From an uncultured Bacilli bacterium (GTDB lineage: Bacteria; Bacillota_I; Bacilli_A; RF39; UBA660): a stretch of 64,000 bases of DNA. The stretch lies in contig CAJTIX010000005.1 in NCBI GenBank assembly GCA_910576795.1, positions 6,804 through 70,803 on the forward strand. Reading direction: 5' to 3'. Positions 48,469 through 61,419 of the stretch are shown here, in pieces. A program made the position numbers and the translations under genes. The notes beneath the pieces were generated by a model. That model was not told the origin of the DNA and ran no database searches. It saw nothing but the letters and a program-made list of their open reading frames with translations. Position 1 is the stretch's first letter; every line of letters starts with the position of its first letter.

Positions 48469-48518
48469 ATTGTCAATAAAAGAACTATATGTTATTATTA
48501 ATAATAGGAGTGTGTAGT

Positions 48519-49505
48519 ATGTTGGAGTTTGTTGTAGTGGATGACAATTTATTTTTTCAGTTAGAAATTAAAAAAATGATACAAAATTGTATGAAGCGTA
48601 AAAACGTTAGTTATCAAATTTTTGTTTATGATGACTATACAAAAGGTGCATATGAGTTGACATCAAAAAATAAAAGAAATATGAGAATATATCTTTTGGA
48701 TACGGAAACACCTTCTAAAAAAATCCAAGACTATGTACAAAAAATTAGAAAATATGATTTTTCAAGCTATATGATTGGATTGGGTGGAGAAGAAAATCTG
48801 TTTCTCGCTCTTAGAAATATGTTTACGGATTATATTAATTACCATCAACCACAATGGAAACGAAAATTAAAAGAAAGTATAGAATTTTTATTAGAGTATG
48901 AAGTCAAAAGAGAAATATTACGATTTATAGAAAATGATGTTCAGTATACGATTCATATAGATGACATCCATTTTCTCGAACGATATAAAAGAAAAAAGAC
49001 TATTATTCAAACAGAATCTTGTAGTTACCTTATTTCTTACACATTAGAAGAATTAAAATATAAATTACCTTCTTACTTTGTTTATAAAAATCCTGCTTGC
49101 ATTTATAATTACAATCATTTGGTTATTTCTTCTGCATCAAATGTGAACGATGAGAGAACGAGAAATCATCAACCACAAAAAGGAAAACGATATTCTAAAA
49201 AAGATCGTCAAAAGGCACTTTATATGTATTATAGTGGAATATCAGAAGAACAAATTATTCGGAAATTTGGAATGCATATTAATACGTTACGTATTTGGAT
49301 TGCAAAAGATAAAACATATAAATATCAAAAAAGTGAATTTGAAAATTTGAATCTACAAAATCAAATCACAACCTTACATTCTAAAAATATGAAACTTAAA
49401 ATGGAAAATCAAAATTTAAAAAGAGAAAAAATAAAAGCAGACGCAACTTGTGAACGCTTTCGAAAAGCGGTTCATATTTTATCAGAATCTGGGGATGAAA
49501 CCTAA
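48519..49505 (+). CDS. LytTR-type response regulator with C-terminal IS3 OrfA-like HTH/leucine-zipper extension
   Basis: Receiver (VVVDDN, LLDTETP Asp61), LytTR-like region (IHIDDIHFLERYKRKKTIIQTE) and a ~115-aa tail (KRYSKKDRQKALYMYYSGISEEQIIRKFGMHINTLRIWI...LKMENQNLKREK). Confidence 0.7.
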   Translation: MLEFVVVDDNLFFQLEIKKMIQNCMKRKNVSYQIFVYDDYTKGAYELTSKNKRNMRIYLLDTETPSKKIQDYVQKIRKYDFSSYMIGLGGEENLFLALRNMFTDYINYHQPQWKRKLKESIEFLLEYEVKREILRFIENDVQYTIHIDDIHFLERYKRKKTIIQTESCSYLISYTLEELKYKLPSYFVYKNPACIYNYNHLVISSASNVNDERTRNHQPQKGKRYSKKDRQKALYMYYSGISEEQIIRKFGMHINTLRIWIAKDKTYKYQKSEFENLNLQNQITTLHSKNMKLKMENQNLKREKIKADATCERFRKAVHILSESGDET

Positions 49506-50380
49506 TGATTTTGACATGTATGATGACATCAATTACCTGTTTGGTTTCACTACATATGGTTTCTAGCATACTGAGTCAAGGAATATATTATCATAAATGG
49601 AAATATTGGATGTGTTATATATTATTGGTATGTTGTACTTTTATCTTATCCTATTTTTCAAATGATCTATTTTTATTATCTTTAGGAATTGTATGGATCT
49701 TATCCAAAATTATTTGGAACCAAAAAATGAGTCAAACTGGTCTGGCAGTTATTTTTAGTTTCTTTTCTCTTATGTTAGCAGATATTCTTGTTACGATTGT
49801 AATGATATCACTTGGAGTATCTACAAGCGAAATAACAGATGTCATTCGTTTAATTTGTAGCATAATCACTTCACTTATCTCTCTATTCTTTTTTCATCTA
49901 TTTCATTTCAAAAATCTATATAAAATGGTAATAGAAACATGTAGTAAAAAAATATCTGATTATTATATTTTGATTGGTATTGTCATTTGTATGTTTCTAT
50001 TTTATATCTATCATTTCCTTTTTTCACTTGTTGGCTATCTCTTTTTACTAGTTTTTAGTATTATTCTAATAGAATATTTCAAAGAAAAAGTAGAATCCAA
50101 ACGTCTTTTAAAAGACTATCAAGACTTAATGGTTCGTATTGAAACAAATTCTCAGCTTATCTTAGAAAAGGAATCCCATTTAAATAAATATCGTAATCAA
50201 CTTTCCTTATTACGACAAATGATGGAAGGATCAGAAGATGGAATTCATTCCTATATAGATCAAATATTAGAAGAAGAAAGCAGTCCTTATTTTGACAGTT
50301 ATATATGGAAAGAAATTCAAAAATTACCAAAAAATGGATTAGCTGGATTATTCTGTTTCAAAAGTTATATAGTTTTTTGA
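49505..50380 (+). pseudogene. AgrC-type (HPK10) sensor histidine kinase, N-terminal fragment interrupted by the integrative element
   Basis: About six TM helices and an H-box-like ESHLNKYRNQLSLLRQMM, with no ATPase domain. The last six codons plus stop (50363-50380) appear element-derived. Confidence 0.6.
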
Positions 50381-50397
50381 CTATCTTTTTATAAGTT

Positions 50398-50436
50398 CTT
50401 AAATGTCTTTATAACCTTTATTTATAAGCATTTAAG
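50398..50436 (+). terminator. hairpin plus T-run at the left end of the element (possible insulator/terminator)
   Basis: CTTAAATG..TTATAA / TTATAAG..CATTTAAG stem with one bulge, followed by ACATTTTTATTTTT. Overlaps the int stop codon. Confidence 0.4.
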
Positions 50437-51721
50437 ACATTTTTATTTTTGGAAGATGTTCACATATATTTTTATAATTTCTTATATTTTCGCTTTCAAA
50501 AGTAGTAAATTCGTAGTAAAATTGCTTTTGCTTGATTATTCTTTCCATCTCTGCTTGTGCCGATGTATAAGTAGGGTGTGTATAATACTTCAATGTCATT
50601 TCAATATTTTTATGTCCCATAATGTATTGAAGTGTACGAGGGTTCATTCCATCGTTAGCCCAATTAGTACAAAAAGTATGCCTTAATGTATGGGGTGTCA
50701 TTTTTTTAGGAAGTTTTTCCTCATGACATTTATTATATTTTTTTACAATTCGATTAAAAATACCATCGTACTCTATATTTGTTCTTGGGTTACCATTTCT
50801 ATTTATAAATAAAAACCCACTATAACCATCAATAACAATAGTCTTTGAACTTTTACGATTTTCTATTATACACTTAAAAATTTCATACGCTTTGTCGCTC
50901 ATAGGTACTTTCCTAACTCCATTATCGGTTTTAGTATCGTCAATATAATAACCTCGTTCACTATTTTTTAAAAGTTGATGGTCTATATTGATTAGTCTAT
51001 TTTCAAAATCTAGGTCGGTTTCTATTAGTCCGCAAAATTCCGATATACGAAGTCCCGTTTCTCTTATTAAAATAATTTCGTCATAATATTTAGAACAAGT
51101 TTTATCACTTTCTATAAAAGAATATAGGCTTTTTTCTTGTTCTAATGTAAGGGGTATATTCTTCTCGGTGTCATTTTCTATTACATCGTCAATTTTAAAC
51201 TCAAAAGGGTTTTTCCTTATATAGTCGTCTTGTATAGCCATTTGAAACGCCGAATATAAAGAACGCTTATCATTTTTTATAGTTTGGTAGGCTATTCCTT
51301 TTTCTTTCATTCGTATAACCCATTCTTTGGCGTCCGACATCTTAATGTTTTCAATAGAACAAGCACCAATTTTATCTTCTTCTAGGTATCTCATAAGTCT
51401 ATTTCGTCCTTTTTTTGTTTTATCTTTAACATTTGGTCGTTGATTATTCTTTTTAGCGTATAATTGACATACACTTATTTTTTTACCTATGGTGTCGATT
51501 CCATCACTAATGTCTTTTAAAATCTCTTGTTCCTTTTCTCTTAAAGATTTATCGTCGCGTTTCCCATTTGGTGTTTTATCGGTTGGTACTAACTTCCAAG
51601 CATATATAAATTGTGGTTTACCGAAACTATCGGTATATTTGTAAACATATCTTCCATCTTTTCGTTGGCTCTCTCCGTTATGTAAAATACGATTTTTTTT
51701 ATCGCGTCTTTTTTCTATCAT
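50432..51721 (-). CDS. int: tyrosine integrase, Tn916 Int family
   Basis: N-terminal arm-binding domain RRDKKNRILHNGESQRKDGRYVYKYTDSFGKPQFIYAWKL, plus catalytic TPHTLRHTFCT, IMGHKNIEMTL and YYTH. Confidence 0.93.
   Translation of the reverse strand: MIEKRRDKKNRILHNGESQRKDGRYVYKYTDSFGKPQFIYAWKLVPTDKTPNGKRDDKSLREKEQEILKDISDGIDTIGKKISVCQLYAKKNNQRPNVKDKTKKGRNRLMRYLEEDKIGACSIENIKMSDAKEWVIRMKEKGIAYQTIKNDKRSLYSAFQMAIQDDYIRKNPFEFKIDDVIENDTEKNIPLTLEQEKSLYSFIESDKTCSKYYDEIILIRETGLRISEFCGLIETDLDFENRLINIDHQLLKNSERGYYIDDTKTDNGVRKVPMSDKAYEIFKCIIENRKSSKTIVIDGYSGFLFINRNGNPRTNIEYDGIFNRIVKKYNKCHEEKLPKKMTPHTLRHTFCTNWANDGMNPRTLQYIMGHKNIEMTLKYYTHPTYTSAQAEMERIIKQKQFYYEFTTFESENIRNYKNICEHLPKIKMS
50491..50527 (+). 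repeat. left sub-terminal direct repeat with Tn916 DR2-like arm site
   Basis: CGCTTTCAAAAGTAGTAAATTCGTAGTAAAATTGCTT. 33 of 37 nt identical to 58743-58779. Contains AGTAGTAAATT. Confidence 0.75.
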
Positions 51722-51798
51722 ATTTTTTTGCTCCTTTCAATAATAGAAAGAGCCTTGATATGCAATAACATTATATCACATATAAGGCTCGATTTTCA

Positions 51799-52035
51799 TT
51801 AAATTACATTTAAAGTATCAATAATTTTTTCAAATTGTTTTCTTTTTATTTGAATTCGGTTGCCGTTCATTAAAACCCAACTTGCGTTTAAATTTTCTTC
51901 TGCTAATTTACGAAGTTTATTTTCGCCGATACGGAAATACTTTGACGCTTCTTCAATAGTTAGTGTATATTTTTCACTTATGGGGACATACACCATATTT
52001 TTACAAAATTCTTGATAGTTGATATTATCCACCAT
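51799..52035 (-). CDS. xis: excisionase, Tn916 Xis family
   Basis: [45 protein letters not shown] is nearly colinear with Tn916 Xis as recalled. Confidence 0.9.
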
Positions 52036-53250
52036 TTAAACCATCTTACTACTTATAATATTGTCAATGTCTTCTTTGTCCTTTTGTGAAATTTCGGCTA
52101 CTTTAATACGCGTAACTTTCATTTTTCCATCTTCACAAAGGTATCCGTATCCTCTTGGGTTTATTTCTTTAAATTGTTTTCGTTTTCTTTCGTCTACAAG
52201 CATTTTCATTTGAGTATCTGAAATTTCGCCCATCAATATTATTTTTTTAAATTGTTCTCTTGCACCTCTTACAAAGTATTCTGCATCTGCTCTTTGTAGA
52301 CTTACTATTGTTATTATTTTTTTACTACGCCCAGCAAACAATAAATCTGCAACCATATCTTTAAGTTTTTCTTTATCACTTTTATCCTTTATTGAATTGA
52401 TAAGCACTGCATATTCTTCAATTAAAAGAATAATTGTTTCTTTATCTTCGTTGTCTTCGTCATTTTCCATACGCTCCTCAAATATTTTATGAACTTCTTT
52501 AATTCCATCTACTGCATTGATACCATAATAATTAGGACGATTTTTAAATTGTCTAAAATCTTCATTTTTAATATCACTTATAAAGACTCGTACATCTTCA
52601 CCATTACAAGATTTATTTAAGACTATTTTTCCTAGTAATTGATGTGTAAAATATGTTTTACCACTTCCCGTACTTCCAACTACTAAAGCCGTTAAAAAGT
52701 CGTCTAGTAAGTTGTCATTTAAGGTTACTTGGAATAGTTTAGGGTGTAATAAATCTCTAGGCGTTGCATAAATATTTATGTATTTTGTTGGTATTCTTGG
52801 TGTCATATAATGTATATCTATATGATAAGCCGTTTCTACATCGTCTTGTCTAGCCCTTAATTTTTCAATAGAAAGATTTTTAGGGTCTACAACAAGTATA
52901 CATTCGTTTTCTTCTTCGCCATCTAAAATCTCAACTATTTCTATGAATTCGCCACTTTCATTTTTTAAGCCAACATCTTGAACATTTTTTTGTTCTTCTT
53001 CTTTGTCTTTATTGTGTCTTTTAAGAGTTATAATTAAAGCGATTAAAATTATTGATAAAATTATTACAAGTCCAATATTAACTACTGCATTTATCATTTT
53101 TATTTGTAATTCGGTAGTGGTTTTTGAAACCATGTAATCTATTGCATAGACTCTTAAGTGCCATATTAATTGTGCTAATACTAGGTATAATTCTACAATT
53201 AAAACCTTTATAATATTAATTTTTTTCATTATTCGTTTTATTTTCTTCAT
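52036..53250 (-). CDS. FtsK/SpoIIIE-family DNA translocase (coupling-protein-like)
   Basis: N-terminal TM helices, Walker A VVGSTGSGKT and Walker B-like IILLIEEYAVL. Confidence 0.8.
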   Translation of the reverse strand: MKKIKRIMKKINIIKVLIVELYLVLAQLIWHLRVYAIDYMVSKTTTELQIKMINAVVNIGLVIILSIILIALIITLKRHNKDKEEEQKNVQDVGLKNESGEFIEIVEILDGEEENECILVVDPKNLSIEKLRARQDDVETAYHIDIHYMTPRIPTKYINIYATPRDLLHPKLFQVTLNDNLLDDFLTALVVGSTGSGKTYFTHQLLGKIVLNKSCNGEDVRVFISDIKNEDFRQFKNRPNYYGINAVDGIKEVHKIFEERMENDEDNEDKETIILLIEEYAVLINSIKDKSDKEKLKDMVADLLFAGRSKKIITIVSLQRADAEYFVRGAREQFKKIILMGEISDTQMKMLVDERKRKQFKEINPRGYGYLCEDGKMKVTRIKVAEISQKDKEDIDNIISSKMV

Positions 53251-54226
53251 TTTCTAATTCCTCCAATTTTTTAGTCATTTTATGTACTATAATTGAGCCA
53301 TCACTTTTGTACTCAATTATGTTATGAATTCTACGCAAAAACGCGTCCCAAACTGCTCTATACTTTAAACCACATCGTAAGTCATAATATTGCTCCTCTA
53401 GGGGAACATTTGAAGTTATATAGACATAAGTGTAACAAGCCACCTTATCACTATATCTCGCGGGTAGCATAAGGGGATATATATCGGTATAATTAAGCAT
53501 ATCACCGATGGGTATTTGACTATGAAATTCCTCAAATACTAGGGTATTCATAGTGCTTTTATATGAGTCAAAATTTACGCCTCTACTACTTGCATAATTC
53601 GTGATACGACATATATTTTTAGCACCATGTCTTTTGTATATATCTCGTGTCTTACCAACGCCTGTATGCCCAAAGACATATGTACAAACTATATCTCGGT
53701 TTTCTCTCATGTACTTATCGGCTAGATAAGTTTCTCTTATCAAGTCTATATCTCGTATTTTTAAAGCCCATTGTGGGTTATTTTCTATAATCTCGATGTT
53801 TGACTTACCATCTTTTATATCTTCTAATAATTGCCCTATAACGGGGTCTTTTTCTTGTAATTCCGATGGTATCGTTCCGTATTCTTCAAAACTGCCCTCA
53901 ACAGATGTTTCGGCTTTGTCGGTATTTTCAAACTTGCCCGTTTTTCTCACATAGTCAATATTATCTTGTATAGTCCCATAGGCTTTTTCTATATGTGCTA
54001 TTTTGTTAAAGCGACTCTGTATCGTTGTAAAGCGAATCGGCGATTTTGAATAAATAAAGATATGGATATGTAGCGTTTGTGTTTCGTTGCCGATTTCCTT
54101 ACACATACAATAGTAGTCAAGAGCGAATTTTTGCAAAGTTTCTTTTATTACTTCGTCCGTAAAGCCGTGTTCTAGTGGGTTGTTAATCGTTAAAGCCCAT
54201 TTACGACTTTGGCTATTATCTGCCAT
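53216..54226 (-). CDS. rep: replication/transfer initiator, HUH endonuclease plus SF3 helicase (CRESS-virus-type Rep)
   Basis: Motif I WALTINNP, motif II LHIHIFIY, motif III DYVRKTG, Walker A GHTGVGKT, Walker B LVFEEF and motif C YITSN. Confidence 0.85.
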   Translation of the reverse strand: MADNSQSRKWALTINNPLEHGFTDEVIKETLQKFALDYYCMCKEIGNETQTLHIHIFIYSKSPIRFTTIQSRFNKIAHIEKAYGTIQDNIDYVRKTGKFENTDKAETSVEGSFEEYGTIPSELQEKDPVIGQLLEDIKDGKSNIEIIENNPQWALKIRDIDLIRETYLADKYMRENRDIVCTYVFGHTGVGKTRDIYKRHGAKNICRITNYASSRGVNFDSYKSTMNTLVFEEFHSQIPIGDMLNYTDIYPLMLPARYSDKVACYTYVYITSNVPLEEQYYDLRCGLKYRAVWDAFLRRIHNIIEYKSDGSIIVHKMTKKLEELENEENKTNNEKN

Positions 54227-54320
54227 GTTATCACTCCTATTTTTAAAAGTTTAGATTATTATTAAATTTTCAAAGAACTAATGCGCTAATACATATACTA
54301 GTTAATACACGCCCATGAGT

Positions 54321-54349
54321 GGGGCGAGTGGCGTAGCCACTTTAGCCCC
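54321..54349. other. GC-rich imperfect hairpin in the Rep upstream region
   Basis: GGGGC-G-AGTGGC-GTA-GCCACT-TTA-GCCCC. Unusually GC-rich for this sequence. Confidence 0.5.
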
Positions 54350-54353
54350 CCAC

Positions 54354-54383
54354 CATATAAGGGCTAGTATTACCCCTTATATG
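54354..54383 (+). promoter_or_regulatory. putative origin (ori/oriT) stem-loop displaying TAGTATTAC
   Basis: Perfect 10-bp stem CATATAAGGG / CCCTTATATG with 10-nt loop CTAGTATTAC. Confidence 0.65.
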
Positions 54384-54401
54384 TAGCATGTAGCATGTAG
54401 C
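54381..54401 (+). repeat. three tandem heptamer iterons ATGTAGC
   Basis: ATGTAGCATGTAGCATGTAGC abuts and overlaps the right arm of the origin hairpin. Confidence 0.7.
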
Positions 54402-54431
54402 AATAATTTTTATAAATTTACCTTAATGTTA

Positions 54432-54462
54432 ATCTTGCTACTATTTAAAACAATAGCAAGAT
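54432..54462. other. second hairpin in the origin region
   Basis: ATCTTGCTA / TAGCAAGAT 9-bp stem with a 13-nt loop. Confidence 0.5.
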
Positions 54463-54497
54463 GTAACAAATCGGTAGTCAATAAGTCAATAAGTAAC

Positions 54498-54785
54498 TTA
54501 TTTTTTGCTTGTTTCGGTAGAGTCAGCAAATTCAACATAACTAACATTTCTATATCTATCGTATAGGAATTCTTCTATATATTTACCTACAAGACTTTTA
54601 ATTTCTGATGTAGTTAATTCTTTCCCAAAAGTTTTGGTTAAGACATCATATCTTACTTTAACTACTGAAACCTTAAGTCCTTCGCTTTTATCGTTGTTAA
54701 ACTCTTCCGCACAATGAAAATTAACATTATGAAATGGCTTATCTTCATACACGCCAATTCTTTCTTCAATACCTATAATTTTCAT
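54498..54785 (-). CDS. hypothetical protein (element cargo)
   Basis: 95 aa with a GAAAGGAG RBS. Confidence 0.5.
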   Translation of the reverse strand: MKIIGIEERIGVYEDKPFHNVNFHCAEEFNNDKSEGLKVSVVKVRYDVLTKTFGKELTTSEIKSLVGKYIEEFLYDRYRNVSYVEFADSTETSKK

Positions 54786-54903
54786 GACCTTAATTTTCTC
54801 CTTTCGTTAGATTTTGTGTAATTTTAGTTGGCGCCTTTCAAATTACAAGTTCATTAAAACACAATTTTTTAAAATCTCTAAAACACGCCATGTGGCTAAA
54901 ATC

Positions 54904-54960
54904 AAAGAAAAAAAGGCTAAAATTATAACCCTTAAACTAGTAAATTATAATTTTAACCTT
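54904..54960 (-). terminator. rho-independent terminator (minus strand)
   Basis: 16-bp stem AAGGCTAAAATTATAA / TTATAATTTTAACCTT with one mismatch, followed by a T-run on the minus strand. Confidence 0.6.
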
Positions 54961-55026
54961 TATATACAAGTGATTTTAATTCCACACGGAAGTTGGAGTT
55001 TTATTAAGTTTTTATAAAAGTTTTCG

Positions 55027-55473
55027 TTATTTTTGCGTTTTTTTATTGCGAGCAAGTAGTAATTCGCTATCTTCTAAACCTATTTTTTTTAAAAGTATAT
55101 TACATTCTTTTATAGACATACCAATACAATTAGTAATTAGGAAGTTATAAGCGCAGTCTCTTCTTTTAGAAAAGTTCATTGTATAACCACCAGCGCGTAG
55201 TAATTCAGTAAAAGAATTTATATCAATTTCAAAAAATATACAAAATGCTACTAAATTTTGTAATGATGGGTCTATTAGTCCTTTTTTCCATCTTCTAAAT
55301 GTTTCACCACTTAAACCTAACTCGTCCTCAAATTCTGTAGGTTCTATTGCTTTTAATTCAACCAACTTATTAAATTTTTCTGCAAAACTTTGACTTATTT
55401 CCCCCGAACAATAATAACTATCTTCAAATTGAAACGCTAATGCGTCTATTTTCTCTTCTAAATCACTTTCCAT
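55027..55473 (-). CDS. putative HTH (XRE-like) regulator of the element
   Basis: LGLSGETFRRWKKGLIDPSLQNLVAFCIFFEID helix-turn-helix-like segment with an AAGGAG RBS. Confidence 0.5.
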   Translation of the reverse strand: MESDLEEKIDALAFQFEDSYYCSGEISQSFAEKFNKLVELKAIEPTEFEDELGLSGETFRRWKKGLIDPSLQNLVAFCIFFEIDINSFTELLRAGGYTMNFSKRRDCAYNFLITNCIGMSIKECNILLKKIGLEDSELLLARNKKTQK

Positions 55474-55498
55474 ATTTTCGCTCCTTTTATTAGTTTAA

Positions 55499-55927
55499 TT
55501 ATATTTTTTCCTCATTTATATACTCAAACAAATCGTTATAATGACACTTTGGTTGTCCGTCCCATAAATAAGCATTGATATTTATAGGCTCTTTATTTTT
55601 AAATGTAAGAGGGGACATAATTATATAAGGTGTATTATCTTTACTATTGACATCATATTCTATTGATTTTACTATCCCAATGTTATTGTCCTCTATAAAG
55701 ACGCTACTTTCTTTAAATTGATTTTTAGATGGAATAACAAGTGCTTTATTTTCCTCGTTATGTGAATCAAGTATTTGTTTAACTTCCCTTAATATAACTT
55801 GGTTATTTTCTTTTACATCGACAACTTGGAAAAATTGTATATAGTGTCCTTTTACGCCACAATGTCTATCAGTATAAAAAATATCGTCAATTTTGATACT
55901 ATCTTGATTTTTTATTTCATTAACCAT
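55499..55927 (-). CDS. hypothetical protein (element cargo)
   Basis: ORF 55499-55984. The internal ATG at 55927 (MVNEIKNQ) is preferred over the TTG start. Confidence 0.45.
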   Translation of the reverse strand: MVNEIKNQDSIKIDDIFYTDRHCGVKGHYIQFFQVVDVKENNQVILREVKQILDSHNEENKALVIPSKNQFKESSVFIEDNNIGIVKSIEYDVNSKDNTPYIIMSPLTFKNKEPININAYLWDGQPKCHYNDLFEYINEEKI

Positions 55928-56023
55928 AAAGCCCGTCCTTTCATTACAATTATACCATTTATTACCAATATAATATAGACTCAAACAAAAAATAATTTTG
56001 GATCACAATTATTTGTACCAAAA

Positions 56024-56320
56024 TTATTTTGATGTATTATCAATGTTATTTTGCATTTCAATTATAAAATTAAATTCTTCTTCTATTTTCCTATATGCAT
56101 CAAAAATTTTTTGCTCGTATTCTTCAATTTTTTTATTATGTTCTTCTAATTTCTTCTTTTGGAAGAAAAAAGGTTTACTATCTTCTAAAAAATTTAATTC
56201 AGTTCTATAGAATTTTATTTGATTATCTAAAAATTCCATATAAAGTTGTGAGTCCTTTATTCCATATATCAAACATAAATCTATTACTTTATTAGCTAAT
56301 TCTTTATTACTTATTGTCAT
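56024..56320 (-). CDS. hypothetical coiled-coil protein (element cargo)
   Basis: 98 aa with a GGTGGT RBS. Confidence 0.45.
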   Translation of the reverse strand: MTISNKELANKVIDLCLIYGIKDSQLYMEFLDNQIKFYRTELNFLEDSKPFFFQKKKLEEHNKKIEEYEQKIFDAYRKIEEEFNFIIEMQNNIDNTSK

Positions 56321-56405
56321 TTCATTACCACCATTTTATCCATTATAAAAGTAGTATCTAAAATCTTTTAAAAATTTATAAATACTACTTTTCATTTTAA
56401 ATTAT

Positions 56406-57209
56406 TTAATTGTTATTTTCGTTTTCTTCAATAAAAGTAAGAGCATTTTTTTGTATTGTTATAACTGGGCGAATTCCACTTCTACCATTTTCAAAAGATA
56501 ACTGACCACCACAAAGGATATCTTGATTAAATCCTGGACTAATACGATATGCACTATATTCATCCCTAGCTGTATCAGTCCAATATCCTAATGCATCTTT
56601 TGTTGCATTATTCAAACAACCATATTTTTCACAATAATTAGATGTTCTATCATACAACCAATTATATTTATTTGATGAATTAGTATCTAAACACGTATTA
56701 TCTATATTACCAGCTATTTCTTTTATTTCAGAAACTTTAATTAATCTAGCATTTAAACTTTTTTCCCAATATGATGTGTCACTTTCTAATTGTTTTTGGG
56801 CTGTTATAGGACCTTTATCAGTTTTCAAATTAGGGTCGCCAAATTGATTATATGTAACATTCCCTCCTGCTTTTTCATAATCTTCTAGAGACAACCAATA
56901 AACAAGATTTGTTGTATTGTGGTCTAATATCATTGTATAAGTGTCTTTATCTTCCTTATATGCATACCATTTCATACAACCACTTCTTGTTTCATCATCA
57001 CTTTTTACATCGCTTTCAGTACATTTTTTGTTTAAATTAGTAGGGTCTAAATATACTATCTTTTTAACACCCTTATAATTCGTTTCACTAGGTGGGTTAA
57101 CTGCTATAGGTTTATTATCATCTTTCTTCTCATTATTTGTAGTTGACCCACACCCAGTTAGCATAAATGCTATTATCATAATTAAACTTAAATATTTTAT
57201 TTTTTTCAT
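56406..57209 (-). CDS. lipoprotein carrying the same C-terminal module as the giant surface protein
   Basis: MKKIKYLSLIMIIAFMLTGC lipobox. ARLIKVSEIKEIAG, GYWTDT and GIRPVITIQK match the module at 13495-14667 and 24730-25993. Confidence 0.7.
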   Translation of the reverse strand: MKKIKYLSLIMIIAFMLTGCGSTTNNEKKDDNKPIAVNPPSETNYKGVKKIVYLDPTNLNKKCTESDVKSDDETRSGCMKWYAYKEDKDTYTMILDHNTTNLVYWLSLEDYEKAGGNVTYNQFGDPNLKTDKGPITAQKQLESDTSYWEKSLNARLIKVSEIKEIAGNIDNTCLDTNSSNKYNWLYDRTSNYCEKYGCLNNATKDALGYWTDTARDEYSAYRISPGFNQDILCGGQLSFENGRSGIRPVITIQKNALTFIEENENNN

Positions 57210-57225
57210 TTTACATTTTCCTTTC

Positions 57226-57834
57226 CTATAATTCCTTTGTAATAATTGTTCCATCTGAATTTGTATTAATTACCTCATAAATATTTAAAATCGAATAGTC
57301 TTTGTCATAATTATCCATAAAAAGTATTTGAGTAGTTTGTTTATCACAATCATCATCACACCATATACTAGATATCTTTATTTTCTTTTTTTCTCCTGCC
57401 TTTAAAGTTATTGGGTCTTTACTTCTTATAACAAATGGTCTGTTATTTGTATCTCTAACGAAAAAAGTATAGCCAATATTATCAAGTGTTTCTTTAGAAG
57501 TATTTTTTATAGTAAATACATATTCAACATCTCCTGCTAGTGTTTGATTATTATTTACTTTATTTTCTTTATGCTTTAATTTAATTCCACTAACATTTAC
57601 CTTATTATAATTTTTGACTTCATTAAATGTATAATAGGGATAGTCTGTTGATGTAGGATGTACTACATTTGCTAAAACCACTTTATCGCTACTTCCACCA
57701 CTTAATAAAGCGATTCCAGTTATACCAACTATAACAATAACTCCACCAATAGCCACTTTTTTAATTCCTATTTTTATAACTTGATTTTTAATCTTTATAA
57801 AAATATCCTTTCCTTTTTCTAGTAGATTACTCAT
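57226..57834 (-). CDS. membrane-anchored beta-rich protein (DUF4352-like, tentative)
   Basis: TM helix VAIGGVIVIVGITGIALL. YVFTIKNTSKETLDNIGYTFFVRD...ITLKAGEKKKIKIS pattern. ATG 57834 follows GAGGTG. Confidence 0.55.
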   Translation of the reverse strand: MSNLLEKGKDIFIKIKNQVIKIGIKKVAIGGVIVIVGITGIALLSGGSSDKVVLANVVHPTSTDYPYYTFNEVKNYNKVNVSGIKLKHKENKVNNNQTLAGDVEYVFTIKNTSKETLDNIGYTFFVRDTNNRPFVIRSKDPITLKAGEKKKIKISSIWCDDDCDKQTTQILFMDNYDKDYSILNIYEVINTNSDGTIITKEL

Positions 57835-57969
57835 TTTTTCACCTCTCAATTTCTAAACTCCACCAGTTCAATATAATTATATCACTATTTTTTAAAAAAT
57901 ACACCAGAATTTTCTAATTTATCTTTTATTTTATTAACAAGTTAAAATTATAATGGGTGGTGGTGATAA

Positions 57970-58143
57970 ATGAATTTTGTACCTAAAAAGACAAAAAAGA
58001 AAATAGTATCAGTATATAAGACTTTATATATAAAGGAAGAGTTAGTAAAACAAATAGAAAAAATTGCAAAAGACAATGATACATCTTTTAATAATGTTAT
58101 TATAAGTATGATAGAGGCTTGTCTTAATGATAATAAAAAATAA
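57970..58143 (+). CDS. ribbon-helix-helix (CopG/Arc-like) protein, 57 aa, absent from the ORF track
   Basis: MNFVPKKTKKKIVSVYKTLYIKEELVKQIEKIAKDNDTSFNNVIISMIEACL shows a beta-strand then helix-helix pattern. RBS GGTGGTGGTGA. Confidence 0.55.
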   Translation: MNFVPKKTKKKIVSVYKTLYIKEELVKQIEKIAKDNDTSFNNVIISMIEACLNDNKK

Positions 58144-58215
58144 TCAAATTTTTATAGAATATTGATATTTTTTTGGAAATATTAAAAAAGCAATTAGCAT
58201 ATAACTAATTGTTTT

Positions 58216-58641
58216 TTAAGATATTCTAATTAAATTACCATCTACTGAATTTACTTTTACGAAACTTAACTCGGGATAATTTGGACTACCAAGTTCATAA
58301 CTGCGTATATATACTTCATTATCTTTTGATAATCTTTCATTTTCCCAATCTTCTTTATATTGTCCAACATAAAATATATTTAGTATCTCTAAATTATAAC
58401 CCTCTATATTTACATCAATAATAAAATAGTAATAAACTATTGAATTATATTTATTTTGACATTCTGCTATAATACTAGAAATCAATTTATTCCTATCTTT
58501 TATTTTACTATCTTCTACATAATCAAGTCCATAAATTTTTCCATTTTCAAAAAAGTCTAACATGTTTGAATTAAGATTAAATTTTTTAGTTAATTCTTTT
58601 ATTCTATAAATTGCCTCGTTTCTTTGTTCTTCTTTTGTCAT
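58216..58641 (-). CDS. hypothetical protein (element cargo)
   Basis: 141 aa from ATG 58641, after a GAGGTG RBS. Confidence 0.5.
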   Translation of the reverse strand: MTKEEQRNEAIYRIKELTKKFNLNSNMLDFFENGKIYGLDYVEDSKIKDRNKLISSIIAECQNKYNSIVYYYFIIDVNIEGYNLEILNIFYVGQYKEDWENERLSKDNEVYIRSYELGSPNYPELSFVKVNSVDGNLIRIS

Positions 58642-58742
58642 ATATAACACCTCACTAATAAATATTATACCATTATTAGGAAAATTAAAAAACGACTTTC
58701 CATCGTTTCTTTAAAATAACATATCAAGACTCTTTATCAAAA

Positions 58743-58779
58743 CTCTTTCTAAAGTAGTAAATTAGTAGTAAAATTACTT
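58743..58779 (+). repeat. right sub-terminal direct repeat with Tn916 DR2-like arm site
   Basis: CTCTTTCTAAAGTAGTAAATTAGTAGTAAAATTACTT. Confidence 0.75.
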
Positions 58780-58843
58780 CTAATTTTCATATTTGCGCCT
58801 TAAAATAAAGGCTTTTTATCAAAAACTAAACTTTTATTATAAA

Positions 58844-59215
58844 ATCAATTTATTACATGAAAAGGGAATTGAAACAACTGTAAGTATTGATTTTCAAGAA
58901 GATCATAATGTACTTCAGTTTTTAAAAGACAGAAACTTAAGAGATTTGACAGCTTGTTTAAGTTGCATGTTTGAATATACAACAGATTTGATGACAAAAG
59001 AAAAAACAGAACGGATGGGACTTCATGTTTATTATGACACACAAAATATTTATTTTGCATTGACACATCCTATTGGAAAAACCAATTTGCATTATATTAA
59101 ACCAAACAATTTAAGTTCTGCTATAAAAGATATGGTGCGTGAAAACTACCACTTAAGTCGAAAAGAAGAAATTATAGATGGAGTCTATACACAGATTTTG
59201 ACTGTCCATATATAG
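58844..59215 (+). pseudogene. AgrC-type histidine kinase, C-terminal (degenerate ATPase domain) fragment
   Basis: INLLHEKGIETTVSIDFQED... aligns by eye with the AgrC segment ILRAQEMNIPISIEI. In frame with codon 286 of the N-terminal fragment. N and G boxes are not recognisable. Confidence 0.55.
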
Positions 59216-59322: not shown

Positions 59323-61419
59323 ATGAATCAAAATGAGCAAGAAGAAAATGTCCTTGAAAAATATGGGCGTGACATTACAGAAAGTGTAAAACTTGGTAAA
59401 GTAGACCCTGTCATTGGACGTGATGAAGAAGTCAGAAGTATTACAAGAATATTGTCTAGAAAAACGAAAAACAATCCTGTTTTAATAGGAGAACCAGGAG
59501 TTGGAAAAACAGCTATTGTAGAAGGACTTGCAAGTCGTATTATCAAAGGAGATGTTCCAAATAGTTTAAAAGGGAAAACCATTTGGGAACTGGATATGGG
59601 AGCATTGATTGCAGGTGCCAAATATCGTGGAGAATTTGAAGAAAGACTAAAAGCTGTTCTCAAAAGAATCAAAGAAAGTGAAGGCGGAATTATCCTATTT
59701 ATCGATGAAATTCACATGATTGTAGGTAGCGGTGCGGAAGGGGCAATTGATACCAGTAATATGCTAAAACCTATGCTTGCTAGAGGCGAAATCAAAGTCA
59801 TTGGAGCAACTACTTTAAATGAATATCGAAAATACATTGAAAAAGATGGTGCTCTAGAAAGAAGATTTCAACGTGTGCAAGTGGGTCAACCAACTGTACT
59901 AGATACCATTACCATTTTAAGAGGTCTAAAATCAAGATTTGAAGTATTTCATGGAGTGAATATCAAAGACAAAGCCCTAATTGCAGCGGCGACCTTATCA
60001 GACCGTTATATTACAGATCGTTTTTTACCAGATAAAGCGATTGATTTGGTGGATGAGGCATGTGCAACTATTAAAGTACAAATGGATTCTGTTCCAACAG
60101 ATTTAGATGTATTGACACGAGAAATTATGCAGCTAGAAATTGAACTAGAAGCCATCAAAAAAGACAAAGATGAAATATCCAGAGCAAGAGTAGAAGAACT
60201 CAAAGAGAAAATTACAGCTTTAAAGGAAAAAGAATCTAAATTAAGAAGTGATTGGGAAACAGAAAAGAAAATCAATGAACGTATTAGTGCAAAAAAAGAT
60301 GAAATTGAAAAATGTCGTTTCTCTTTAGAACAAGCAGAAAATAACTATGATCTGGAAACAGCCGCAAAACTAAGACATGGAACATTACCAAATTTAGAAA
60401 AGGAATTAGAAGAATTGAAAGCCCAAAATACGTCTCAAATTTTAAGTGATGTGGTAGATGAGGAAGATATTGCGGGCATTATATCCAAATGGACCAATAT
60501 ACCAATTCAAAAATTAGTAGGTGGAGAAAGAGAAAAATTAATTCATTTGGAAGAAAATATGAAAAAACGTGTCAAAGGACAAGAAGAAGCTTTACGACTA
60601 GTGAGTGAAGCAATTATCAGGGCTCGAGCTGGAATCAAAGATCCCAAACGTCCAATTGGTTCTTTTATTTTTCTAGGGCCAACAGGAGTTGGAAAAACAG
60701 AAGTTGCAAAAACACTTGCCTATGAATTATTTGATGACGAACGCCATATGGTCAGAATCGATATGAGTGAATACATGGAAGCACATTCAGTATCTAGACT
60801 GGTGGGGGCTCCTCCTGGATATGTCGGGTATGACGAAGGGGGACAATTGACAGAGGCTGTCAGAAGAAATCCTTATAGCATTGTCTTATTTGATGAAATT
60901 GAAAAAGCACACAGAGATGTATTTAATATTTTATTACAAATCTTGGATGATGGTAGAATTACAGACTCTCAAGGAAGAACGGTTGATTTTAAAAATACCA
61001 TTATCATTATGACCTCAAATTTAGGAAGTAATCATATTTTAGAAAACAATGAAGATAGCGAATCATTGGTCATGAAAGAATTGAAACAGACATTTAAACC
61101 TGAATTTATCAACCGTATTGATGAAATCATCATCTTCAATGCTTTAAGCAAAGAAGTGGTATATGACATTTTAGACCGTATGATAAAAGAAATAGAAGTG
61201 CGTTTACAAGATCAAAAAATTCAAATTGCGTTAACAGAAAAAGCTCGTGATTTTATTATTGAGAATTCTTATGACGAAGTATATGGAGCACGACCTATCA
61301 AGCGATATATCAGCCGCAATTTAGAAACATTGTTAGCTACTTCCATTTTGATGGAACAAATAGGACCTAATGCCAAAGTAATTGTTGATGTAGAAGATGA
61401 AAAACTCGTATTAAAATAA
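59323..61419 (+). CDS. clpB: ATP-dependent chaperone ClpB lacking the N-terminal domain (698 aa)
   Basis: Starts at the equivalent of E. coli residue ~149 ([26 protein letters not shown]). Two AAA+ modules ([18 protein letters not shown]) and a long middle coiled coil. Confidence 0.93.

Follow-up and report, generated by a model that had tools for sequence, protein, structure and literature searches.

The window analyzed here is a 64,000-nucleotide stretch of contig CAJTIX010000005.1, from the assembly GCA_910576795.1 of an uncultured Bacilli bacterium, and it contains an 8.5-kb integrated element that we interpret as a probable integrative mobilizable element (IME) of the pCRESS2 type. The element has twelve open reading frames (ORFs) between 50.4 and 58.7 kb, the first four of which form a tight module with the genes for a tyrosine integrase (int), an excisionase (xis), an ATPase and a replication initiator (rep). 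The 270-nt spacer upstream of rep holds, in this order, iterons, an origin hairpin, a G+C-rich hairpin and a third hairpin (Table 1). The element is real and discrete; it is inserted in a gene for an AgrC-like histidine kinase, and conspecific strains lack it at this site.

Borders, insertion site and mobility

A single AgrC-like kinase gene has been split into the ORFs on either side of the element (49505-50380 and 58793-59215), and an intact orthologue of 406 to 409 aa is found in the congeners G001, G004 and G006, always in the order sigma factor, LytTR regulator, kinase and ClpB. Public mouse gut sequencing runs were examined as assembled Logan contigs, and in four of them (X25, X26, X27 and X3) position 50353 is joined straight to 58835, in contigs that are ca. 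99% identical to the window flanks (the one from X25 has 11,872 nt). This empty site reads GGATTATTC followed directly by TATTATAAAATC, encodes GLFYYKI as in the congeners and restores a 409-aa ORF; its carriers are conspecific strains. The empty-site contigs set the insert at positions 50354 to 58834 (8,481 bp, with an ambiguity of 1 nt), so that the original prediction had found the element but had drawn its edges (50363 and 58843) about 9 nt off.

Homology to related elements at other loci, as seen by blastn, ends at 50360 and at 58835 to 58855, and comparison with two of these elements (L017 and L021) gives 50360 to 58834 as the conserved element sequence. The six bases TGTTTC that precede it are shared neither with the target nor with the ends of L017 and L021. 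There was no target duplication at insertion, only the extra TGTTTC at the left junction of the occupied site, and this combination of no duplication and six foreign bases is the signature of a Tn916-family insertion. The carriage of a 6-bp coupling sequence from the prior site is a known mechanism in Tn916 and Tn1549, and TGTTTC was probably carried over from the previous insertion site in the same way.

Several observations point to recent movement. Run X11 contains the segment from 50461 to 58835 with 0 to 1 differences and without the window flanks, run X3 has both the occupied and the empty site, and related copies lie at other loci. Three different insertion sites of this kind of element have been seen. 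On its two sides the L021 element has UvrD-family ORFs, one of 280 aa and one of 444 aa, which may be the parts of a single split helicase gene. A 1,308-nt contig from run X1 links the Int-proximal end (50360 to 50407, identical) to a flank absent from this assembly, which could mark a further site of insertion, either in the same sample or in another organism.

A Tn916-type integration module

The integrase has the arm-binding domain PF02920 (4e-33) and the catalytic domain PF00589 (4e-36). Its residues 3 to 73 match the N-terminal domain of Tn916 Int (1bb8, E value of 3e-27) and residues 82 to 395 match Tn1549 Int (6en0, 2e-134), while Xis is identical to Tn916 Xis (1y6u) at 52 of the 63 aligned residues. 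The two DR2-like arm sites are 35-nt sub-terminal direct repeats (family D4), 91% identical to each other, and the arm motif occurs 12 times in the whole 1.3-Mb genome, always at the element or at the miniature elements described below. All the traits of a Tn916/Tn1549 recombination module are therefore found together (PF02920 Int, PF09035 Xis, DR2 repeats, absence of duplication and a 6-bp coupling sequence), as the original prediction had claimed for Int, Xis and the arm sites, and excision by Int and Xis with Tn916-type insertion is well supported.

Rep belongs to the pCRESS2 group

The 336-aa Rep matches PF02407 (1.5e-6) and aligns end to end (query 7 to 304, phmmer E value of 5e-10) with the Rep of porcine circovirus 2 (PCV2; 7lar); it has no match in NCBIfam or PHROGs. 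Each of the HUH endonuclease and superfamily 3 (SF3) helicase motifs listed in the original prediction could be located: WALTINNP (10-17), HIHIF (53-57), YVRKTGK (92-98), GHTGVGKT (186-193), LVFEEF (229-234) and YITSN (269-273). The pCRESS2 Reps are distinguished by HUH instead of HUQ, a motif III without YLxH, Glu replacing Asp in Walker B and Asn in motif C (PMC6668415, Suppl. Note), and the same four signatures are seen here. Using as references the sequences of Kazlauskas et al. 2019 (Supplementary Data 3), blastp identity was 43 to 52% to six pCRESS2 Reps and 35 to 38% to two basal pCRESS2 ones, compared with 26 to 30% for pCRESS3 and 23 to 26% for pCRESS1. In the maximum-likelihood tree, built with 16 of these references, Rep was placed inside the pCRESS2 core clade together with five pCRESS2 references (support of 97/94); the phylogeny that had been suggested as a check thus nests it in this group.

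The family is large, with 1,875 homologues at E values of ≤0.001 and 50 loci in species-representative genomes, which are metagenome-assembled genomes (MAGs) of Bacilli and Clostridia. Congener G001 has a Rep 65% identical to this one with two in-frame stops (G001:C4:25740-26750), which adjoins an origin of the type seen in relative L048, and also a second Rep, 43% identical; they are one decaying and one divergent member of the family. The mouse gut MAG CATOJL01 contains two related elements (L037 and L076). In one of them Rep, ATPase, Xis and Int are 100% identical to those of the window, and the helix-turn-helix protein and the 161-aa ORF are only 28% and 39% identical. Such an identical core next to a different accessory region indicates recent recombination between elements.

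A circovirus-like replication origin

The loop of the origin hairpin contains the circovirus/nanovirus nonamer TAGTATTAC at 54365 to 54373, on the strand opposite rep. Thirteen close relatives have a long enough sequence upstream of rep, and all 13 keep the iterons and the hairpin, between -141 and -164 (mostly -146); L048 has a compensatory stem change in the origin hairpin. In ten origin copies compared with RNAalifold, 8 pairs showed compensatory changes, 5 of them in the G+C-rich hairpin, a candidate single-strand origin or Rep loading site, and those of the third hairpin at pairs 116-141 and 119-138. A more distant branch (L049-L086), formed by Oscillospiraceae and other Clostridia with Reps 49 to 57% identical, has (T/A)AGTATTAC upstream of rep in 21 of 27 relatives, at -50 to -74. 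There the nonamer and rep share a strand, whereas in the Bacilli branch the nonamer is on the opposite one, so that the origin is inverted relative to rep between the two Rep branches.

The main text of the 2019 study does not mention a nonanucleotide, a stem-loop or iterons (PMC6668415). Our literature search, of limited scope, for the nonamer in combination with integrative elements and bacteria retrieved only papers on viruses. That bacterial Reps keep the exact circovirus origin makes the scenario of a plasmid ancestry of CRESS (circular Rep-encoding single-stranded) DNA viruses testable at the origin and not at the protein alone.

The ATPase resembles the coupling protein TcpA

The product of the gene between xis and rep has a weak, sub-threshold match to PF01580 (FtsK_SpoIIIE, 5e-4) and a Walker A motif, GSTGSGKT, that is invariant across 16 homologues. 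The profile of these 16 sequences gave as its best PDB match the coupling protein TcpA of pCW3 (6o1x, 5e-4, versus 0.58 for FtsK). The AlphaFold2 model (mean predicted local distance difference test score of 81.6) opens with a pair of long helices (residues 2-41 and 45-93), which would be transmembrane segments as judged from their hydrophobic sequence and not from a dedicated predictor, and continues with an alpha/beta domain and a RecA-like motor. A single helix follows the motor domain in the model, with no C-terminal DNA-recognition (winged-helix) domain. The top six Foldseek matches of this model were TcpA chains of pCW3 (6o1x, 9e-15; 6o1z, TM-scores of 0.64/0.71), followed by FtsK motors. 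Because the profile, the AlphaFold model and the Foldseek ranking agree, we assign the protein by prediction to the TcpA-type coupling ATPases rather than to the cell-division FtsK. The membrane-anchored FtsK-like ATPase originally described is thus present, with TcpA as its closest match.

In several relatives (L042, L043 and L047 among others) the ATPase gene between rep and xis has been replaced by another one, 38% identical or without a tblastn match, and the spacing is kept. Rep is still 84 to 93% identical in them, and values of 92 to 96% were also noted for relatives with a swapped ATPase gene.

Table 1. Features of the element and of its miniature relatives. Positions are those of the window unless a contig (C) of the genome is given.
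Feature	Position	Strand	Basis or remark
AgrC-like histidine kinase, 5' part, 283 codons	49505..50353	+	ORF list, empty-site join
TGTTTC, six foreign bases, putative Tn916-type coupling sequence	50354..50359		Absent from empty site
Element proper, 8,475 bp	50360..58834	-, genes mostly minus	blastn homology limits and empty site
Int-proximal terminus AAAAGTTATATAGTTTTTTGAC	50360..50381		Imperfect inverted repeat of far terminus; end alignments
int, Tn916/Tn1549-family tyrosine recombinase, 429 aa	50432..51721	-	Pfam, PDB matches
DR2-like arm site, Int-proximal, inside 3' end of int	50493..50527		Two GTAGTAAA-type repeats
xis, Tn916-type excisionase, 78 aa	51799..52035	-	PF09035 3e-19; PDB 1y6u 6e-31
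tcpA-like gene, FtsK-superfamily ATPase, 404 aa	52036..53250	-	Overlaps rep by 35 nt
rep, HUH endonuclease and SF3 helicase, 336 aa, pCRESS2 group	53216..54226	-	PF02407, phmmer, tree
Third conserved hairpin AACTAG...TTAGTT, between origin and rep	54276..54303	-	RNAalifold, 10 origin regions
G+C-rich hairpin beside origin	54319..54353	-	Five pairs with compensatory double changes, 10 copies
Origin hairpin, 10-bp stem CATATAAGGG/CCCTTATATG	54354..54383	+	Loop CTAGTATTAC on + strand
GCTACAT iterons, three in tandem, adjoining origin hairpin; presumably bound by Rep	54381..54401	-	Sequence; invariant in close relatives
95-aa ORF, no family match	54498..54785	-	Often kept just upstream of origin in relatives
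148-aa possible regulator	55027..55473	-	PHROG transcriptional regulator 4e-4, NCBIfam RstR; all weak
Two ORFs, 161 aa and 98 aa, no family match	55499..56320	-	86-95% identical in part of the relatives
Lipoprotein, 282 aa (lipobox LTGC), overlapping 207-aa putative membrane protein	56406..57849	-	Seen in sequence
57-aa Arc/ribbon-helix-helix-like repressor	57970..58143	+	PHROG 582 1.6e-6; divergent from main operon
144-aa ORF, no family match	58216..58650	-	Library scans
DR2-like arm site, far end	58745..58779		Direct repeat family D4
Far terminus ...TTTTTATCAAAAACTAAACTTT	58813..58834		End alignments, empty site
AgrC-like histidine kinase, 3' part, ATPase domain, 126 codons + stop	58835..59215	+
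Mini-elements	C2:~115.3-116.3 kb, C3:104551-105963, C6:~45.8-47.0 kb		tblastn Int fragments, shared ends/origin
Mini-elements	C12:1-700, C14:~20.96-22.35 kb, C28:13.37-14.13 kb		tblastn Int fragments, shared ends/origin

Transfer genes in the element and in the genome

No relaxase of a canonical family, VirB4, VirD4 or other component of a type IV secretion system (T4SS) was matched in the 12 ORFs by any of four libraries (Pfam, NCBIfam, PHROGs and PADLOC), in agreement with the original prediction. The Pfam and NCBIfam scans likewise gave no origin of transfer (oriT). A larger composite element with an adjacent T4SS, the situation that would have undermined that prediction, was rejected, as the flanks are the halves of one kinase gene in conserved synteny; the exact borders leave the neighboring genes outside the element. 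A prophage or satellite was also rejected, with no capsid, structural, terminase or portal gene matched in Pfam or PHROGs.

Elsewhere in the source genome (G000), contig C29 (648-13840) carries a T4SS-like cluster with a TrbL/VirB6-like protein (TrbL_4), a VirB4-like ATPase (AAA_10, 1.5e-11), a CHAP+SpoIID hydrolase and a VirD4 (PF02534, 5e-56); the family scan covered the cluster except for two small hydrophobic proteins at its N-terminal end. Of 41 related genomes, 30 have its VirB4, with identities of 92 to 96% within the genus and 69 to 87% across the family. As this identity tracks kinship, the cluster resembles a resident system of the whole lineage more than a recent integrative and conjugative element. 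A second VirD4-type coupling protein (764 aa, PF02534, 1e-57) is encoded on contig C17 (14211-19113), two genes from a large serine recombinase, and is probably part of another integrated mobile element. The search for a Tn916-like helper came out negative: PF02486 (Rep_trans/MobT) has no match in the whole genome, there is no second Tn916-type Int in it, and tblastn with Int retrieved only distant tyrosine recombinases and short C-terminal Int fragments, which are the ends of the mini-elements.

A putative mobilizable element and its alternatives

The element combines its own integration and excision module, defined ends, a PF02407 Rep with a TcpA-like ATPase, and the absence of T4SS genes. 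The reading that we favor, and consider rather probable, is that of an IME of the pCRESS2 or "Rel_PF02407 + TcpA" type that uses a resident T4SS. Rep would be its relaxase; a relaxase and rolling-circle replication (RCR) initiator in one protein is known in MobT of Tn916 and ICEBs1 (PMC5704250). To start the cycle, Int and Xis would attach to the DR2-like arm sites and make cuts 6 bp apart within the coupling sequences that flank the element, releasing a double-stranded circle and leaving in the kinase gene either TATTAT (the wild-type YY) or TGTTTC (CF), both in frame. Rep could then bind the three GCTACAT iterons and nick TAGTATT/AC in the loop, on the strand opposite the one that codes for it, and would stay attached via Tyr92 as its SF3 helicase unwinds the DNA. 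Rolling-circle copying of the circle, driven by Rep, would supply the strand for transfer; homology and the conserved origin are what suggest both the nicking at the hairpin and the copying. The membrane-anchored, TcpA-like hexameric ATPase might bring the Rep-DNA complex to a T4SS channel not encoded by the element, for which the C29 cluster (VirB4, VirB6-like protein, CHAP-SpoIID hydrolase and VirD4) is the best candidate in the genome. This coupled export is the weakest step of the model. In the recipient, Rep would rejoin the strand, the complementary strand would be primed, possibly at the conserved G+C hairpin, and Int would integrate the circle at an A+T-rich site, with low sequence specificity.

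Some points weigh against this interpretation. The helpers predicted by Guédon et al. 2017 provide a TcpA coupling protein and an FA-type T4SS (PMC5704250), whereas the resident cluster has VirD4 and Rep_trans/MobT is absent from the genome. The gene order, rep-tcpA, is the reverse of the tcpA-relaxase order of the streptococcal IMEs, and for Kazlauskas et al. the FtsK-like protein is a segregation ATPase (PMC6668415). No circle junction was seen in the contigs of 12 runs, although only Logan contigs, from which rare forms are dropped, were used. The C29 cluster belongs to a metagenome bin, so that its presence in one cell with the element is assumed, and excision, nicking and transfer are all deduced from sequence. 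The anatomy given in the original prediction and its idea of an IME that borrows a resident channel nevertheless agree with all the evidence obtained here; what supports them is the TcpA-like ATPase, the exact borders with no T4SS inside or next to the element, and the candidate cluster on C29.

A complete replication-type origin, with iterons and nonamer hairpin, would also fit an integrated rolling-circle plasmid of the pCRESS2 group, in which Rep only replicates the circle, the ATPase segregates or resolves the copies at division, and spread takes place by transformation, transduction or chance co-transfer with no dedicated mobilization. The annotation of the shared ATPase as an FtsK-like DNA segregation ATPase (PMC6668415, Suppl. 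Note 1) and the lack of an oriT or a canonical relaxase in our scans speak in the same direction. However, the ATPase is closer to TcpA than to FtsK in both profile and fold, seems to be membrane anchored and has no FtsK gamma domain, and the rep-tcpA pairing is kept even where the ATPase gene has been swapped. The near-identical 8.4-kb copy in another context and sample, and the span of the family over Bacilli and Clostridia, argue for efficient horizontal transfer. We find such a plasmid unlikely, although it ranks first among the alternatives. Next comes a self-transmissible element like the actinomycete integrative and conjugative elements (AICEs), with an FtsK-like pump that alone moves the double-stranded circle and a Rep devoted to replication, which was part of the original prediction. 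The set of Int, Xis, RCR Rep, FtsK-like ATPase and small regulators seems to parallel that of the pSAM2 type, and there is no T4SS gene in the element; the fold is nevertheless closest to TcpA, a T4SS partner, the model has no winged-helix domain at its C terminus, such as the one with which TraB recognizes clt repeats, and the host lineage does possess a T4SS. To our knowledge, TraB-type transfer is known only from mycelial actinomycetes, and we regard this option as improbable. Finally, no circle junction was seen in the assembled contigs, and the element could be a decaying or domesticated remnant, immobile by now, whose presence/absence pattern reflects just an old insertion. The four intact core ORFs, the X11 copy with 0 to 1 differences in another context, the polymorphic site within sample X3 and the still distinct 6-nt coupling sequence make this last explanation very improbable.

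Miniature single-gene cassettes

Six small non-autonomous elements are present in the same 1.3-Mb genome, on contigs C2, C3, C6, C12, C14 and C28. Where visible, they consist of a left end that carries a DR2 arm, a single cargo gene, the origin and the Int-proximal end. The origin comprises iterons (GCTACAT-GCTTCAT-GCTACAT in most), an GTAATACTA hairpin and two further hairpins, and the Int-proximal ends, of ca. 157 nt, are 82 to 90% identical to that of the large element. The cargo genes code for a DnaJ-domain protein, a NUDIX protein, a histidine phosphatase, a haloacid dehalogenase (HAD) protein and two unknowns. A left arm could be located for C3 and C14 alone; contig ends truncate the C12 and C28 copies, and an arm-motif search of the genome found none for C2 and C6. 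The C3 mini-element, of 1,413 bp, is cleanly polymorphic for presence and absence in runs X25 and X26; for that of C14, none of the four runs inspected had an empty site. A scan of 41 relatives placed the origin motif solely in G000 (7 copies), G001 (3), G006 (1) and G020 (1), and the reversed control gave no match.

We propose tentatively, at somewhat less than even chances, that this cassette family has its autonomous partner in the 8.5-kb element. The complete element could supply Int, Xis, Rep and TcpA to the co-resident cassettes. If Int and Xis did move the cassettes and Rep and TcpA replicate and export them in trans, this would be a gene-cassette shuttle made of a transposon recombinase and a circovirus-like origin, and the TAGTATTAC hairpin would act as a dual replication and transfer origin in bacteria. 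No description of a gene-cassette shuttle of such build was found in the literature searched. An autonomous element and six cassettes that share ends and origin within one genome provide a natural system for the study of trans-mobilization.

Accessory and neighboring genes

Upstream of the origin, the 95-aa ORF is 81 to 100% identical (tblastn) in 7 related loci. The 282-aa lipoprotein has only weak matches to lipoprotein leaders and the hydrophobic stretch of the overlapping 207-aa protein was judged by eye; both might form a surface or exclusion pair. PADLOC found nothing in the cargo ORFs, so that no defense function can be assigned to them. Outside the element, the LytTR-type response regulator (48489-49505, 338 aa) has a long C-terminal extension, which is conserved, as the congeners hold the same form of 326 to 329 aa. 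ClpB (59323-61419, 698 aa) begins at the first ATPase domain, without the N-terminal domain, and starts at the same point in the congeners.

Comparison with known systems

The architecture of the element is not new, having been described in 2017 to 2019, and the terms "chimeric" and "potential living link" between bacterial replicons and CRESS viruses used in the original prediction were overstated. The streptococcal IME class Rel_PF02407 already combines an RCR-initiator putative relaxase, TcpA, an excisionase and a tyrosine integrase (PMC5357655; PMC5704250), and the link from plasmids to CRESS viruses had been argued by Kazlauskas, Varsani, Koonin and Krupovic in 2019 (PMC6668415). PF02407 "Viral_Rep" putative relaxases are known from two streptococcal elements, both with TcpA, for instance IME_SiniSF1_ebfC (PMC5357655). 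Like them, the element described here has a PF02407 putative relaxase, a TcpA-type ATPase, an excisionase and a tyrosine integrase, lacks a T4SS, and is proposed to pirate a resident conjugative channel. It differs in that rep precedes tcpA, whereas theirs have tcpA upstream of the relaxase gene, in its integrase of the Tn916/Tn1549 type, with low target specificity, and in its host, an uncultured small-genome Bacilli lineage from the mouse gut. The swap of the ATPase in relatives that keep Rep is an intramodular replacement of the kind reported by Coluzzi et al. (PMC5357655).

With the pCRESS2 elements it shares the position of Rep in the clade, the motif signatures, a tyrosine integrase and an FtsK-like ATPase. 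Outside groups 7 and 9, 97.5% of pCRESS Reps are chromosomal, typically in integrated elements (PMC6668415), tyrosine integrases and FtsK-like ATPases are common to the elements of pCRESS1-3, 5 and 8 (PMC6668415, Suppl. Note 1), and one pCRESS2 element, from Lachnospiraceae 6_1_63FAA, has a Tn916-type Xis (PMC6668415). The differences are the canonical TAGTATTAC hairpin with iterons, found here family-wide and unmentioned in the main text of PMC6668415, and the fact that no single-stranded DNA-binding protein (SSB) or Sec10/PgrA gene was recognized in the element.

The likeness to Tn916 and Tn1549 covers the arm-binding N-terminal domain of Int, Xis, the DR2 repeats, A+T-rich targets, the 6-bp coupling sequence and the absence of duplication. 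Those conjugative transposons have 18 to 34 kb, compared with 8.5 kb here. With neither a T4SS nor a MobT (Rep_trans) relaxase, the element is not a member of the conjugative transposon family, to which only its recombination module belongs. Its coupling ATPase is probably not a close homologue of Tn916 Orf21. The Circoviridae and other CRESS-DNA viruses share with it the full-length HUH and SF3 alignment of Rep (with that of PCV2) and the TAGTATTAC loop hairpin with adjacent iterons; unlike them, it is an 8.5-kb double-stranded integrated bacterial element that has no capsid gene and has the nonamer opposite rep. AICEs of the pSAM2 type are integrative elements of roughly 10 kb with Int, Xis, a rolling-circle Rep and one FtsK-like ATPase. 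They differ from it in host (Bacillota here), in their unrelated Rep families and in the ATPase, TcpA-like here and without a recognizable C-terminal DNA-binding domain.

Belonging to a class already described, the element by itself changes little. It extends the PF02407/TcpA IMEs (pCRESS2) to uncultured small-genome Bacilli of the mouse gut, shows that an IME of this kind can be driven by a Tn916-type, low-specificity integration module, and offers an example with completely defined limits, in which both the empty site and the coupling sequence can be seen.

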